Shown: positions 77-4,566, counted from the first letter of the stretch. The stretch is 4,566 nucleotides of DNA from a virus (IMGVR_UViG_2875713109_000002), one strand, 5' to 3'. The notes: generated from the letters alone by a model not told the origin. Numbers and translations are program-made.

Positions 77-162
77 AGCCACAGGACGTCGATAAAGGAC
101 GGTTTGGGGCGTCATATCGGGAGCTGCGGACCACTTAATCGCAACTTCCCTAGAAGATACTT

Positions 163-188
163 ACACATTTTTCCTCTGAAAACTGTGT
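163..188. promoter_or_regulatory. Imperfect 10-bp inverted repeat upstream of the ATPase promoter (possible operator)
   Basis: ACACATTTTT (163-172) and AAAACTGTGT (179-188) are 9/10 complementary, with a 6-nt spacer. A second short palindrome, ACTGAA-TT-TTCAGT (248-261), abuts the TG of the extended -10. Confidence 0.2.
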
Positions 189-197
189 GTTACGTCA

Positions 198-270
198 TTG
201 ATGGATTGTGTTGGAATGGCTAATAATTTGGGTGATGTCATAGTTTTACTGAATTTTCAGTGATATAAAT
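198..270 (+). promoter_or_regulatory. Candidate sigma70 promoter region for the ATPase gene
   Basis: Two candidates read by eye: TTGATG (198-203), 18-nt spacer, AATAAT (222-227); and an extended -10, TGATATAAA (261-269). Both sit in the AT-rich leader upstream of the RBS AAGGA (326-330) and the ATG at 334/337. Not experimentally supported. Confidence 0.3.
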
Positions 271-333
271 CATGTAAAAATAAGGTGTTCTACGTAAGGT
301 TATTTTTCTATACACAGCTAGCATAAAGGATTA

Positions 334-1782
334 ATGATGTTTATTAAAAAACTGAAGATAGAAAATTTTAAAGGGTATCACGGGGAAGATAATGAGTTGG
401 AATTCAATATCCCTGATGGAGAAACGGAAGGTAGTGGACTTAATATATTTGTGGGTGAAAACAACGCCGGAAAATCCACTGTATTTGAAATTATAGATTT
501 TATAAAGGATGGAACCAAAAAGAACATTGAGGATCTTATATGCAAATCAGATCCGGCTAATATTGCTGAGAAGCTTTCAGCCGAGCTAACCTTCACTGGA
601 AACTTATCAGAAGTAATTGCCGCTCATGTACAAGCTAATAAAGTTGCAGCATTCACCTCGCATGTTTTTGAGGACGAGGGTGTTAATTATTTCAGAGTGA
701 AGAGGTGTAGTGAGGTAGGGGAGAAGAAAATATTATTTTGGAACGGAAATGAATTTGTTAACCCAAGTGGTATAGATGCCCCATTTAAGAAGTTTTATGA
801 TAATAACTTCATTTGGGCTGATACAAACCCAAGCAATGAAGCAAAGTTTGGCTCTACAACTATATGTGGTTCGCTTCTAAAAGAAATTGCTTTAGGCCAT
901 ATTGAAACGGATGAGTATAGAGCGTTTTCTGAGCAATACCATCGCGTATTCAATCACCCTGAATCAGAGTTGAGACAGAAAATATCATTAGTCGAAAATC
1001 AAGTTAGAGAGGTTTTCTCATCTCAATTTGGTATGGCAGATATTTCTTTCATTTTTGAAGAGTTGCAGGTAGAGAATTTCTTCAAAACTATTTCCATCAT
1101 GATTGATGATGGGGTGAATGTCCCAATGGGAGAAAAGGGGCATGGTATGCAAAGGGCACTAGCCCTATCATTACTTCAGGTGTACGCTGAGATAACGTGT
1201 AATGCGCATGGTGCGGGGATTAGTAAACCATTTTATCTTTTCATTGACGAACCTGAAATATGTCTTCATCCTTCAGGGCAGCAAAAGCTTTTAGAAGCTT
1301 TAATGATTATCTCCAAAAGTAGACAGGTTTTTGTTACAACGCACTCTCCTTTCCTTTTGTCCTCCCCTTACCTTAAAAATATCGGTCTGTTTGTTTTCAA
1401 AAAAGAGAATAATAAAAATGTTGTGGAAAGGGCTGATACTTCTCCATGGTTCCCTTGGTCTCCATCGTGGGTCGAGATTAATTTCAAAGCATACAATTTA
1501 GCAACCGTTGAATTGCATAATGAATTATATGGTTATTTGCAGGAGAAAAACTCCTGTCCAAGCGAAAAAACAATGGAGCAATGGCTAAATTCAAAGGGAA
1601 TTGCGTTTGATAAAGTATGGGTTAAAGAATTTAAAGGTGCGGCACAACCGCCAGCGGATACTACATTACAAACATTCATCCGTAATCATATACACCACCC
1701 AGAGAATGTTACAATGCAATCTCATCGCTATACACAACAAGAATTACTAACTTCAATCCAACAAATGGTTGGGCTTCTATAA
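334..1782 (+). CDS. ABC-type ATPase (AAA_15/AAA_21-like, OLD/GajA/PtuA/AriA clade) with uncharacterised C-terminal domain carrying a HEPN-like R-N-x3-H motif; candidate anti-phage defence protein
   Basis: 482-codon ORF with RBS AAGGA at 326-330 and tandem ATGs at 334 and 337; the second has the better spacing. Walker A GENNAGKST (aa 41-49, nt 454-480). Signature-like GEKGHGMQ (aa 266-273). Walker B FYLFIDEPE followed by LHP (aa 300-313, nt ~1231-1272). H-loop VFVTTHSP (aa 332-339). No Toprim-like E / DxD motifs after the ATPase core. C-terminal ~140 aa contain R450-N-H-I-H-H455 (nt 1681-1698). Codon usage is strongly AT-rich, unlike the neighbouring genes. Ends 7 nt before a terminator hairpin. 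Confidence 0.85.
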   Translation: MMFIKKLKIENFKGYHGEDNELEFNIPDGETEGSGLNIFVGENNAGKSTVFEIIDFIKDGTKKNIEDLICKSDPANIAEKLSAELTFTGNLSEVIAAHVQANKVAAFTSHVFEDEGVNYFRVKRCSEVGEKKILFWNGNEFVNPSGIDAPFKKFYDNNFIWADTNPSNEAKFGSTTICGSLLKEIALGHIETDEYRAFSEQYHRVFNHPESELRQKISLVENQVREVFSSQFGMADISFIFEELQVENFFKTISIMIDDGVNVPMGEKGHGMQRALALSLLQVYAEITCNAHGAGISKPFYLFIDEPEICLHPSGQQKLLEALMIISKSRQVFVTTHSPFLLSSPYLKNIGLFVFKKENNKNVVERADTSPWFPWSPSWVEINFKAYNLATVELHNELYGYLQEKNSCPSEKTMEQWLNSKGIAFDKVWVKEFKGAAQPPADTTLQTFIRNHIHHPENVTMQSHRYTQQELLTSIQQMVGLL

Positions 1783-1784
1783 AG

Positions 1785-1814
1785 AAAAAGGCGAGCCGTT
1801 TGGCTCGCCTTTTA
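1785..1814. terminator. Bidirectional rho-independent terminator shared by the convergent genes
   Basis: Perfect 8-bp GC-rich stem GGCGAGCC (1790-1797) / GGCTCGCC (1802-1809) with loop GTTT. Flanked by AAAAA (1785-1789) on the left and TTTT (1810-1813) on the right, so each strand's transcript ends in a U-run. It lies 7 nt after the ATPase stop and 8 nt after the stop of the minus-strand ORF. Confidence 0.7.
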
Positions 1815-1817
1815 ATA

Positions 1818-2009
1818 TTAATTTAATAACTTGCGCTTTTTAGATAATAGTACGCTTAAAGCATATTCAAATCCGTGTTGCGCCTCTAGACGGCATAGGG
1901 TGATATTACAGATCCCCAACTCCTTACACAGCGCCTTTCGATTAATTACTTCCGCCGCGCCTGATACATAGACTTGACCAGCGCCGGGGATATTGATTGA
2001 AACTTTCAT
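1818..2009 (-). CDS. Small helix-turn-helix protein (63 aa), possibly a truncated or remodelled phage gene
   Basis: ATG at 2009 preceded by GAGGT with about 6-nt spacing. The segment KALCKELGICNITLCRLEAQ fits a classic helix-turn-helix pattern (E-L-G-I-x3-T-L-x-R-L), resembling AlpA/excisionase-like or small-terminase N-terminal DNA-binding domains. The last ~15 codons fall in AT-rich DNA, whereas the 5' two-thirds have host-like GC. Confidence 0.5.
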   Translation of the reverse strand: MKVSINIPGAGQVYVSGAAEVINRKALCKELGICNITLCRLEAQHGFEYALSVLLSKKRKLLN

Positions 2010-2101
2010 GTGTTACCTCAGTGTAAAAGTAAAAATGAATATAACCGGAAGAGATAATCCCCAGCCGATACCCAAAGGGCGCGACCGGGGGGCATTTTGC
2101 A

Positions 2102-3121
2102 TTACTTCAGCTTGACGTTCAGCGTGTAGTTCGGGCGCAGGTTCAGAGGGATGAAGCTCGCCTCCTGGTGAATGGTCACCATGCCGTAACGGTCAGTCAT
2201 TACTTTCTGGTAGAACGGGCTGATCTCGCCTTTCGCGGCGATGTCCTGATTACGGGAAGCCGGGCCGTGTACCAGTTTGAACGGGTTACGGTCAGCGCCG
2301 TTAAACTTAGGAACGAACAGGCCGGAACCTTCTTCGATTTCGTAGCGGTCATCGTCCGCCAGAATGAAAGTAATGTTGCCAATGCTGAAGGAGTCATAAC
2401 CCGCAGTGTTAACCGGGATCAGAGCGCCTTTTGCAGCTTCCGCCACTTTGTTGGTAATAAGGCTGGTTACTTCCGGGTGGCTCGCCAGTACGTCATACAG
2501 ATCCGGGGAGCAGAAGCAGAAGAAGCGGTCCAGATAGGAGCGGCTCGTGCCGTACTCTTTAACCAACATGCGGCGAATCTTCGCAAGCTGTGCATACACG
2601 TTAGCGCCTGCTGAACCGTCCAGGTTGAAACTCAGCGGATCGGCACCCATCGCCGCGCGAAAGTCGATATCACCGTCGTCAGTCTTAGCCGCTTTCGCTT
2701 CCTGTTTGAACAGGGCGCGGGCCAGCGTACTTTCAACCGTTTCCAGGTGATGGTTACGCATACGGATAGCTTTAGACGCGATCACTTCAGAAATAGCCGC
2801 AACCTGATCCGGGTTAGCCGGGCTGATCAGACCTTGCCAATCAGCGGTTTTTACGTCCGCTTCGGTGGCGTAGTGTGGGAGCTCCTGGTCACGCAACAGA
2901 GGCTTATCCATTTTGATGGAGTTAACTTCGGTGCCGTAGCGGGCTACCTGTTCCAGTTCAGAGACTTGAGTCTCTACGATGTCCAGAACTTGAGCGTTTG
3001 GAGTGGTGGAGTTAACACCGGAGAAGATACCCAGATCAGAGATCAGGTAATTACCCGCTGGCACTTGTTTAAGTGCCGCTACGGTGTCCAGCTTTTCAAA
3101 CTGTTTAAAATCAATAGCCAT
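2102..3121 (-). CDS. Phage major capsid protein, probably lambda gpE-like family
   Basis: 339-aa ORF. On the minus strand the upstream gene's TAA stop is followed by AAGGAAA and then ATG at 3121, a tight operon junction. Size matches gpE (~340 aa). The C-terminal stretch (TIHQEASFIPLNLRPNYTLNVKL) resembles the gpE C-terminus as I recall it. GC-rich codon usage. Family assignment is from memory, not a search. Confidence 0.6.
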   Translation of the reverse strand: MAIDFKQFEKLDTVAALKQVPAGNYLISDLGIFSGVNSTTPNAQVLDIVETQVSELEQVARYGTEVNSIKMDKPLLRDQELPHYATEADVKTADWQGLISPANPDQVAAISEVIASKAIRMRNHHLETVESTLARALFKQEAKAAKTDDGDIDFRAAMGADPLSFNLDGSAGANVYAQLAKIRRMLVKEYGTSRSYLDRFFCFCSPDLYDVLASHPEVTSLITNKVAEAAKGALIPVNTAGYDSFSIGNITFILADDDRYEIEEGSGLFVPKFNGADRNPFKLVHGPASRNQDIAAKGEISPFYQKVMTDRYGMVTIHQEASFIPLNLRPNYTLNVKLK

Positions 3122-3133
3122 TGTGTGATTTCC

Positions 3134-3241
3134 TTATGCTTTGAAGTAATCGGCGTTGATAGCCAGGCGAATATCACCGGAGGCTGTCAGCGCTTCCAGT
3201 GCGGCTTTTTTGCTCGCGGCGTCTTTAGCACGTAGGGCAAA
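3134..3241 (-). pseudogene. 3' remnant of the head gene preceding the capsid gene (scaffold or decoration protein C-terminus), truncated at a breakpoint
   Basis: The last ~35 codons of minus ORF 3134..3616 (FALRAKDAASKKAALEALTASGDIRLAINADYFKA) look protein-like and end in TAA just before the capsid RBS. Everything upstream in that frame is Cys/Ser/Arg-rich junk lying antisense to a well-formed + strand protein, and no ATG is present in the plausible part. Confidence 0.45.
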
Positions 3242-4385
3242 ATCGGTAACCAACCTTACAGAAAAGGATCTGTTTGACCTGATGCAACAAGGGAAGCTGT
3301 TCTCTAAGGACATCCTCCCGGAAGTGGCGAAACAGATGAAAGCCGCAGCTCGTAACGGCGGCGCTCTGGATAAGGCTATGAAGTCCAACCGGGCAAGTTG
3401 GCAGCGCCTGCAAACCAGTATGCAGAACGCTATGAATATCTTCTTTACTTCTGGCTTTGGTAACTCACTAACCAGCGCTTTCGACGCTATCAGCGCCGCT
3501 GTTAACGGCTCTGGTGGGGCCTTTGAGATGTTCGGGCATATCGCCGGGAAAATCGTTGAGGGTGCCACAGATGCGTTTACAGAGTTGCACGACACTGTGA
3601 TCCTGACCTTCCGCATTATTGAGTATTACGCCGCTAAGATGGGGATCACTGGTGAGCAGCTTAAATCCTGGGGAGAAATGGCAGCATACGCCGCCGGGGT
3701 GGCTCTGTTCGCTGGCTCTATCTGGAAGTTGGGCGGGGCCTTTAAATGGTTGTTGACCATGCTCAACCCGCTAACCAAATTGCTGGGGGTCATGAAAGGG
3801 ATCGCCGCTATTGGTGGCATTGAATCCGCTACAACTGGCGGATCTGGTGGGGAAGGTAAAGACAAGCCAAACAAACCGGGCCGGGGTCCGAAAGTTGGCA
3901 AGGTAGGCGGCGCGGCGGCTCTCTCTGGCGGTCCTGTTGGCTGGGGCATTGCGATCGGTTCGGTAGGTGGGGATTATGCCTGGGATAAAGTCATGGACGC
4001 TAACGACGCCATGTATGGACAGGACACCACCGCCGGAGGCAATCTGAAGAAAGATAGCCCGCTGGGTAAACTGTGGGATTTCATCCACAGCCCAGACCTT
4101 CCGACTAATCCAGACTTTGCCAAACCAACAGATAAAACAGGGTGGGTAAGCTCTTACTCCAATCCGGGTTATGTTCCTCCTGCGCCGACGATTACAGCGC
4201 CACAGCTTAAAGTTGATATGGCAGGTAATCCACTGATGACGCCGCCAGCGTGGCTAAACCAGCCGCTTAACGTGAACGTCAATGTGAAAGTGCAGGATGG
4301 GCAGGTTAGGGATCTGGTCCGCTCTGAAGTTGAGACCAACAACCAGCAGGCTTTCAACATGCTGATGCAGGGCGGGCCGAACTAA
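3156..4385 (+). CDS. Phage tail tape-measure-like protein, C-terminal fragment (N-terminally truncated; plausible coding from about 3243)
   Basis: 409-codon ORF. From about codon 30 the sequence is protein-like, with long hydrophobic Ala/Gly-rich segments (AAYAAGVALFAGSIWKLGGAFKWLL, LLGVMKGIAAIGGI) and a Gly-rich linker (TTGGSGGEGKDKPNKPGRGPKVGKVGG) typical of tape-measure proteins. The first ~28 codons (MIARRISPEAVSASS...) have antisense-type composition and overlap the head-gene remnant. No convincing RBS for the internal ATG at 3282. At ~380 aa it is much shorter than typical tape-measure proteins. Confidence 0.5.
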   Translation: MIARRISPEAVSASSAAFLLAASLARRAKSVTNLTEKDLFDLMQQGKLFSKDILPEVAKQMKAAARNGGALDKAMKSNRASWQRLQTSMQNAMNIFFTSGFGNSLTSAFDAISAAVNGSGGAFEMFGHIAGKIVEGATDAFTELHDTVILTFRIIEYYAAKMGITGEQLKSWGEMAAYAAGVALFAGSIWKLGGAFKWLLTMLNPLTKLLGVMKGIAAIGGIESATTGGSGGEGKDKPNKPGRGPKVGKVGGAAALSGGPVGWGIAIGSVGGDYAWDKVMDANDAMYGQDTTAGGNLKKDSPLGKLWDFIHSPDLPTNPDFAKPTDKTGWVSSYSNPGYVPPAPTITAPQLKVDMAGNPLMTPPAWLNQPLNVNVNVKVQDGQVRDLVRSEVETNNQQAFNMLMQGGPN

Positions 4386-4466
4386 CCGCCCATACAAAAA
4401 AGGCTCCCCTAGTGGGATAATGCCGATCAGTTAAGGATCAGTTGACCGATCCAGTGGCTGTGTAAG

Positions 4467-4501
4467 AATCCGGAAACGCTCACTCGTTTCCGGATTTTTT
4501 T
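4467..4501 (+). terminator. Strong rho-independent terminator after the tape-measure-like ORF
   Basis: Perfect 12-bp stem AATCCGGAAACG (4467-4478) / CGTTTCCGGATT (4485-4496) with loop CTCACT, running into a T-run through 4501. The opposite strand has no T-run, so it acts on the + strand only. Confidence 0.8.
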
Positions 4502-4566
4502 ATGCACATTGGACAGGCCCTTGATTTGGTATCCCGTTACGATTCTCTGCGTAACCCACTGACTTC

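Follow-up and report, generated by a model that had tools for sequence, protein, structure and literature searches.

An OLD-type ABC ATPase joined to a predicted HEPN-like domain: a candidate single-gene defence ribonuclease of Escherichia coli and its relatives

Among described phage defence systems, PrrC and RloC resemble the gene considered here in that an N-terminal ABC ATPase regulates a C-terminal HEPN tRNA nuclease within one polypeptide (PMC3710099). Their ATPase, however, is Rad50/SbcC-like (AAA_13 type) while that of the present gene is of the OLD/AAA_15 type, and their HEPN domain is a distinct, divergent version (PMC3710099). Additionally, PrrC belongs to a type Ic R-M operon that silences it, whereas the gene here is stand-alone; no hsd genes adjoin it, and no PrrC or RloC sequence match to the protein was found in Pfam, NCBIfam or PADLOC. 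The Old protein of phage P2 offers a different likeness, being a single-gene system with a homologous ATPase that carries a helical insert. Where Old has its Toprim domain, however, the protein here has, from about residue 367 onward, an unrelated domain of 115 aa. A 2026 preprint identifies P2 OLD as an abortive tRNase, the autoinhibited tetramer of which is destabilised upon sensing aberrant or origin ssDNA structures such that tRNA is cleaved.

Two further groups bear comparison. PARIS (AriA/AriB), Gabija (GajA), Septu (PtuA/PtuB) and HEC-01 to HEC-04 likewise combine related ABC ATPase sensors with a nuclease effector, and share with the gene here the theme of genes embedded within other defence systems; their effectors, however, are Toprim, HNH, NERD or PIN domains, none of them HEPN, and the present protein has no need for a second gene. 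The MNT-associated HEPN toxins (HI0074 / NTase_sub_bind; HepT / DUF86, e.g., SO_3166) have an MNT antitoxin partner, while none is present here; relative to HepT, the domain described below carries an additional helix and beta-meander as an insert, and is extended by HPEN where HepT has H-x-Y.

Finally, an ABC-HEPN family designated ERFG_01251 was predicted by comparative genomics (Anantharaman et al., 2013, Biol Direct 8:15; PMC3710099), in a paper that sets it apart from PrrC/RloC and notes that its HEPN domain is also fused to a 'HEPN/Toprim-NTD1' domain in some proteins. The family described here is very probably this one (prototype gi 422781011, from E. coli), a judgement drawn from four matching descriptors rather than from alignment: the architecture, the E. 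coli prototype, an MNT-type HEPN as putative nearest relative, and the embedding in CRISPR loci of Neisseria and Kingella. Specifically, an N-terminal ABC ATPase is fused to a C-terminal HEPN-like domain with a conserved Rx4-6H, and homologues lie within CRISPR-Cas loci of both genera. No experimental study of ABC-HEPN or OLD-HEPN proteins came up in literature searches, and Pfam, PADLOC v2 and NCBIfam hold no model for the effector domain of the family. What is reported here is no new kind of system; it is the rediscovery of a family already known as a 2013 computational prediction, for which a structural model, conservation statistics and genomic context are new.

The gene and the island that carries it

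The window analysed is a stretch of 4,566 nucleotides, and translation revealed a single long plus-strand ORF within it (334..1782), encoding a protein of 482 aa that RefSeq names 'ATP-dependent nuclease'. Copies of the gene that are 100% identical occur in E. coli PSS-07 and E. coli 1916D18. The gene and the features that directly follow it are:

334..1782, plus strand: whole gene, OLD-type ABC ATPase with C-terminal HEPN-like domain, 482 aa (ORF list)
1786..1813, plus strand: intrinsic-terminator-like hairpin with a 12-bp stem containing 7 GC pairs, beginning 4 nt past the stop codon
1818-2009, minus strand: 63-aa ORF lying between terminator and capsid gene, annotated in PSS-07 as a hypothetical protein (WP_000868620.1)

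Since the terminator-like hairpin begins so close to the stop codon, the gene looks monocistronic as read from the sequence. Its GC content of 0.375 differs from the 0.53-0.54 of the adjoining capsid and tape-measure genes; the gene is horizontally acquired and stand-alone. The 63-aa ORF has no match in Pfam, NCBIfam or PHROG, and no RNA features or tRNA were found in the window.

The phage-like segment past the ATPase gene is inverted between strains (16956-25871 in L001, E. coli 90-1, versus 13790-23116 in L002, E. coli H8). In the window (1818-3250) and in 90-1, the ATPase gene is immediately followed by the major capsid gene in minus-strand orientation, and in 90-1 a small tyrosine recombinase gene is found at the far edge of the segment. 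In H8, it is the small (~185-aa) tyrosine recombinase gene that directly follows the ATPase gene, and the capsid gene, here in plus-strand orientation, is located at the island's far end. This arrangement suggests that a segment of ~9-10 kb is invertible or rearranged. Further along the window, at ~3134-4385, a 409-aa ORF with a TTG start at 3156 represents a 5'-truncated tape-measure gene; it matches the PHROG tape-measure model at C-terminal positions 432-800 only, and RefSeq calls a 367-aa 'hypothetical protein' in this region. Identity to the 90-1-type island ends at window position ~3249-3254 and resumes inside a tape-measure gene elsewhere; the island is thus a decayed element that has undergone an internal deletion. 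The last part of the window (~4396-4566) is the start of IS4, 94-99% identical to the IS4 copies of lambda-type phage records and of thousands of E. coli genomes, and it is because of IS4 at the 3' end that 2,670 records match when the whole window is used. Positions 147-4566 are 100% identical to E. coli PSS-07, while for positions 1-146, which cover the 3' end of the integrase gene lying upstream, no complete E. coli genome offers a near-identical counterpart; the integrase allele of the source strain is therefore probably a different one or a recombinant.

An OLD-type ATPase followed by a distinct C-terminal domain

The N-terminal portion of the protein contains a complete series of ABC ATPase motifs:

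334..1431, plus strand: ABC ATPase module of OLD / AAA_15 type, residues 1-366, with a helical insert at ~160-300 and a terminal beta-hairpin at 351-366
454..477, plus strand: Walker A / P-loop GENNAGKS, residues 41-48 (sequence reading)
1138..1155, plus strand: ABC signature-like motif GHGMQR, residues 269-274 (sequence reading)
1234..1257, plus strand: Walker B and D-loop YLFIDEPE, residues 301-308 (sequence reading)
1336..1350, plus strand: H-loop TTHSP, residues 335-339 (sequence reading)

Across 59 homologues, the invariant residues are G41, N43, N44, G46 and K47 of Walker A; G269, G271, M272, Q273 and R274 of GHGMQR, which from general knowledge of ABC ATPases we take to be the ABC signature motif; I304, D305, E306, P307 and E308 of the Walker B/D-loop; and T336, H337, S338 and P339 of the H-loop. 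Pfam AAA_15 matches the N-terminal part at 3e-30, AAA_21 matches as well while AAA_13 does not, and the PADLOC models for AriA, GajA, PtuA and HEC-01A match the ATPase at 1e-14 to 1e-32. The PADLOC 'Old' model matches at 7.6e-46 but covers just the first 352 of its 578 positions. Similarly, BLASTP aligns residues 39-349 (311 residues) with phage P2 Old at 26% identity (E 1e-20), and the alignment ends at residue 349, where the Toprim domain of Old starts. While the N-terminal part agrees with the OLD family in being an ABC ATPase into which a dimerization region is inserted, no Toprim, DUF4435, HNH or other nuclease domain was found in the protein or the adjoining genes. OLD nucleases are by definition an ABC ATPase with a C-terminal (or adjacent-gene) Toprim (PMC10568477), and the protein is therefore only half an OLD; the 'ATP-dependent nuclease' and OLD-family names given to homologues rest on the ATPase half only.

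Beyond the ATPase, a distinct domain of 115 residues (368-482) begins near residue 368 (nt 1435). The earlier note had placed this domain at 1366-1782 (residues 345-482), a span whose C-terminal extent holds from about residue 368 but of which residues 351-366 still belong to the ATPase. The two sequence strings that it singled out are present, WFPWSPSW at 372-379 and HNELYGYL at 395-402. Its description of the region as His-rich is loose, as there are 5 His in 137 residues, of which four (H395, H452, H454 and H455) are family-invariant or nearly so. The features of the domain are:

1435..1779, plus strand: C-terminal HEPN-like domain
1450..1470, plus strand: linker/cap motif F-P-W-S-P-x-W, residues 373-379 (conservation)
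1507..1548, plus strand: helix 392-405, proposed HEPN helix-2, containing V-E-L-H-N-E-L-Y-G (DSSP of model)
1564..1662, plus strand: insert of helix 411-420 and beta-meander 427-443, between proposed helix-2 and helix-3 (DSSP)
1666..1695, plus strand: helix 445-454, proposed HEPN helix-3, LQTFIRNHIH (DSSP; H100-109 in the domain model)
1681..1707, plus strand: putative catalytic motif R450-N-H-I-H-H455-P-E-N458, an Rx4H with a family-specific HPEN extension
1735..1776, plus strand: last helix, 468-481, proposed HEPN helix-4 (DSSP)

An AlphaFold2 model of the domain, built from an 84-sequence alignment, is predicted with high confidence (pLDDT 93.3, pTM 0.85), and a model of the full-length protein gives the same secondary structure with pLDDT 90-97 across the C-terminal domain. 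Specifically, the beta-hairpin 351-366 that ends the ATPase is followed by the FPWSPxW linker, helices 379-387, 392-405 and 411-420, a small beta-meander (427-443), helix 445-454, a loop, and helix 468-481. R450 falls within the final turn of helix 445-454, and the loop that precedes helix 468-481 opens with H455.

As the earlier note had read them, residues 450-455 are R-N-H-I-H-H, encoded at window positions 1681-1698. Taken alone, the motif is only mildly unlikely by chance: in shuffles of the whole protein and of the C-terminal region, at least one R[NHK]x3H arose in 5.8% and 2.1% of cases, respectively, and the looser Rx4-6H in 66% and 28%. Conservation supplies the stronger evidence. Among 121 homologues down to 55% identity, R450, H454, H455, P456, E457 and N458 are invariant and position 451 is N in 119 and H in 2, such that FIRNHIHHPEN stays essentially invariant while nearby loop positions vary freely. 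The distant set, comprising the best 150 of 848 representatives of 50%-identity clusters detected with a domain-only profile (E<=1e-3), tells the same story: the motif R is kept in 148/148, the two His in 145/147 and 147/147, the residue after R is N in 112 and H in 31 of 147, and the HPEN extension is retained as P in 135, E in 139 and N in 136. Even a ~30%-identical homologue on an uncultured phage contig keeps YIRHQIHHPEN. Given this conservation across the family, RNHIHH is not a chance match, and the coincidence that the earlier note had allowed for is not borne out.

Several other positions of the domain are conserved. F373, W375, S376, P377 and W379 of the linker are invariant in the 121 homologues; the start of FPWSPxW often falls outside the match in the 150 distant representatives, but where it is aligned F, P, W, S and P are commonest, and the last W is present in 84/140. 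In helix 392-405, H395, N396, L398, Y399 and G400 are invariant and E397 is present in 120/121, with the H and E kept in 141/149 and 142/149 of the distant representatives, respectively; H395, N396 and E397 are candidates for a second conserved polar/acidic site. Residues W417, K427 and W429 are conserved in the insert, and L471 and S474 of the last helix are invariant in the 121 homologues.

These features fit published descriptions of HEPN domains (PMC3710099), in which a conserved acidic residue sits in helix-2, as E397 would in the helix proposed here, an insert may separate the two conserved helices, as the helix and beta-meander would here, and a polar residue (here N/H) directly follows the conserved R. 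The earlier note had expected the motif at a helix N-terminus, which is not the HEPN rule; in the model it lies at a helix end and loop start, the position described for HEPN Rx4-6H motifs (PMC3710099). The comparison with HEPN folds that had been proposed as a check was made with the predicted structure, and 8 of the 10 best matches in the fold search are HEPN or HEPN-fold proteins, as are ~24 of the 60 matches listed, many from unrelated families; AF0298, TTHA0636, YutE, Las1, Csx1, Csm6, MtlR and Cas13b are among the lower-ranked HEPN-type matches. A fold that is not HEPN-like would hardly account for such enrichment among matches to a model, and together with the conserved motif and its position in the model this enrichment supports the HEPN-like reading first advanced for this region.

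Sequence-level searches of the domain returned no similarity to an established HEPN family in Pfam, PDB sequences or DUF86. The domain alone gave nothing meaningful against Pfam, PADLOC, NCBIfam and PHROG, where the best hits (Slx4, DUF2027 and glutaredoxin-like, E 0.06-0.14) were treated as noise; hmmscan of 31 family members against Pfam found no HEPN-clan family at E<=10; and phmmer and hmmsearch against PDB sequences found no HEPN, the ribosomal proteins and Dom34 that appeared being chance-level matches. Foldseek of the domain against the PDB gave no match (best E 0.38). In hhalign, two versions of the domain alignment each reached a probability below 1% against HepT/DUF86 proteins gathered with a consensus-like seed, a profile-profile comparison that covered DUF86 only. 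The domain composition, the invariance of the motif, its position in a confident model and the enrichment of HEPN among fold matches are directly supported, and we consider it likely that residues 368-482 form a compact, divergent HEPN-fold domain in which R450-x4-H455 and N451 constitute the RNase site of a single-gene abortive-infection RNase.

A family distributed across mobile and defence loci

Proteins of ~480 aa belonging to this family occur in Gamma- and Betaproteobacteria, with 1101 matches in a 90%-clustered database and 848 detectable representatives of 50%-identity clusters (E<=1e-3, domain-only profile). A free-standing toxin version was sought and rejected, as the domain-only search of the 90%-clustered database gave only truncated gene calls, and short representatives that look 'stand-alone' are fragments in which the ATPase H-loop is still present. 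Similarly, odd-length representatives (340-664 aa) have no other kind of N-terminal domain, all being AAA_15/AAA_21, and no 'HEPN/Toprim-NTD1' fusions were seen among the best 150 of the 848 representatives. In two short representatives, P0290 and P0271, the domain is joined to unrelated N-terminal sequence, judged by eye to be PIN-like in one and GatC-like in the other; mis-assembly or gene-call run-through is a more probable origin for both than true fusion. Among 50,697 phage records, a single one, MT836961.1 (an uncultured phage from human faeces; L019 1918-3696), holds a homologue that includes the C-terminal domain, at ~30% identity and with the motifs YHDELYG and YIRHQIHHPEN. Its ORF has an extension of ~78 aa N-terminal to the ATPase start, which probably reflects a wrong start codon.

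The gene is rare in E. coli, being present in 10 of 5,426 complete genomes, and in all 10 it adjoins an integrase, as part of a decayed phage-like island that lies between rcnR and thiM. Elsewhere its surroundings vary. The Serratia marcescens homologue lies between gpA and portal remnants, in what is left of the P2 gpA-gpQ old/tin hotspot (hotspot: PMC9122126); that of Dickeya shares an island with CbtA, a DUF4238 gene and a HEPN_RiboL-PSP gene; that of Shewanella adjoins a UvrD-type helicase, an HNH gene and two methylases; and in Acinetobacter and one Neisseria the gene is a solo insertion between housekeeping genes. In Aeromonas veronii, a co-directional gene 60 nt upstream (4883-5941 in L010 and L011) encodes a 352-aa protein with weak CoiA_N / DUF7828 similarity and forms with the homologue a two-gene insertion adjoining cysS. 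This CoiA-like gene was not seen in the other contexts examined; it may represent a defence gene with no link to the homologue, or else a partner confined to this lineage, and being lineage-specific it was rejected as a conserved partner.

A recurrent position is found in Kingella oralis, several Neisseria and N. animaloris, where type I-C operons carry the gene in the same direction between cas3 and cas5d, with gaps of 38-95 nt on the cas3 side and 52-85 nt on the cas5d side. The homologues at this site in Kingella oralis (P0133), Neisseria (P0136) and N. animaloris (P0099) are full-length and 56-57% identical. In Neisseria, the type I-C operons with the ABC-HEPN gene also vary at a second slot, located around cas4 and ahead of cas1, and these cas operons therefore host two embedding sites. 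Cargo of the cas4 slot differs by strain and comprises a GmrSD-family protein, an HNH_5 protein and unannotated proteins of 437, 308 and 122 aa:

L013, 11549-12862: second variable slot
L014, 10880-11248 and 11958-12884: second variable slot
L015, 11567-13411: second variable slot
L024, 10590-11452: second variable slot

Across nine contexts, no conserved partner gene was found. The lack of a Toprim and of a conserved partner, as well as the defence or mobile-element contexts, are directly supported, and given varied contexts that have no conserved neighbour in common, the gene behaves as a stand-alone, mobile, defence-associated module.

Proposed mechanism, alternative readings and meaning

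The protein may be pictured as an ABC ATPase of OLD type on which a HEPN domain takes the place of the Toprim of P2 Old, the whole constituting a defence module that consists of one gene and moves horizontally. Sensing and switching would fall to the ATPase with its helical insert, which would keep the RNase inactive, a gating proposed because of the analogy with PrrC, RloC and P2 OLD. An infection cue would alter the nucleotide or oligomeric state, allowing two HEPN domains to pair their Rx4H motifs in a composite active site. The resulting site (R450-x4-H455 with N451, probably with a contribution from H395 or E397 of the preceding conserved helix) would be that of a metal-independent endoRNase leaving products with 2',3'-cyclic phosphate ends. 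Cleavage of cellular RNA, for which tRNA anticodon loops are the best-guess substrate, would stop translation, resulting in abortive infection or dormancy. RNase activity, substrate, dimer activation, trigger and defence phenotype are in each case what we infer from the composition, conservation and context of the gene.

Other readings of the C-terminal domain differ in how much of this picture they retain. It is quite unlikely that the fold is HEPN-like while the domain is no RNase, serving instead as a nucleic-acid- or ligand-binding sensor or regulatory module in the manner of MtlR or the non-catalytic HEPNs, with an output that is ATP-driven (DNA or protein clamping) or supplied by an unlinked effector such as Cas3 in type I-C loci. 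Against such a role stand the invariance of the full Rx4H with its polar residue and of a second H-N-E motif, the argument that domains which keep the motif are RNases (PMC3710099), and, for an unlinked effector, the fact that most contexts lack a conserved neighbour to supply one. A further proposal, also unlikely, is that the domain is not HEPN at all but a new small alpha/beta domain, either DNA-binding and lambda-repressor/POU-like or a metal-dependent nuclease or hydrolase, in which the Rx4H would be coincidental; in its metal-dependent form, the cluster of H395, E397, H452, H454, H455, E457 and N458 would bind metal. That RNHIHH might be a chance match in a His-rich stretch, devoid of functional meaning, gains some plausibility from shuffles in which the six-residue pattern arises in 2-6% and the loose Rx4-6H in 28-66%, but with the motif R kept in 148/148 distant representatives and flanking loop residues variable, this idea is refuted by conservation and is extremely improbable.

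A bolder extension of the RNase reading holds that an OLD-type sensor swapped its Toprim for a HEPN RNase while keeping the same tRNA-cleavage output as P2 OLD and PARIS, and that the Neisseriaceae copy is coupled to CRISPR interference. Such a copy could, for instance, serve as an abortive backstop if anti-CRISPRs block Cas3/Cascade or if Cas3-generated DNA intermediates accumulate. In this full form the proposal is rather unlikely; if true, the type I-C copy would represent a HEPN accessory of a type I CRISPR system, gated by an ATPase and independent of CARF.

If the main RNase prediction holds, the family would provide a compact single-gene abortive-infection system in which a sensor of the OLD/PARIS/Gabija type drives a HEPN RNase, besides the Toprim and HNH nucleases, and this would extend the recent finding of tRNA as the target of P2 OLD and PARIS.

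Though widespread (848 cluster representatives), the family escapes current defence-finding tools and is mis-described from its ATPase alone. Its position within type I-C operons of human-associated Neisseria and Kingella poses a tractable question, namely whether type I CRISPR systems have RNase backstops like those of types III and VI. It is the apparent Toprim-to-HEPN effector swap, together with the fixed type I-C cas position, that keeps this predicted system worth experiment.
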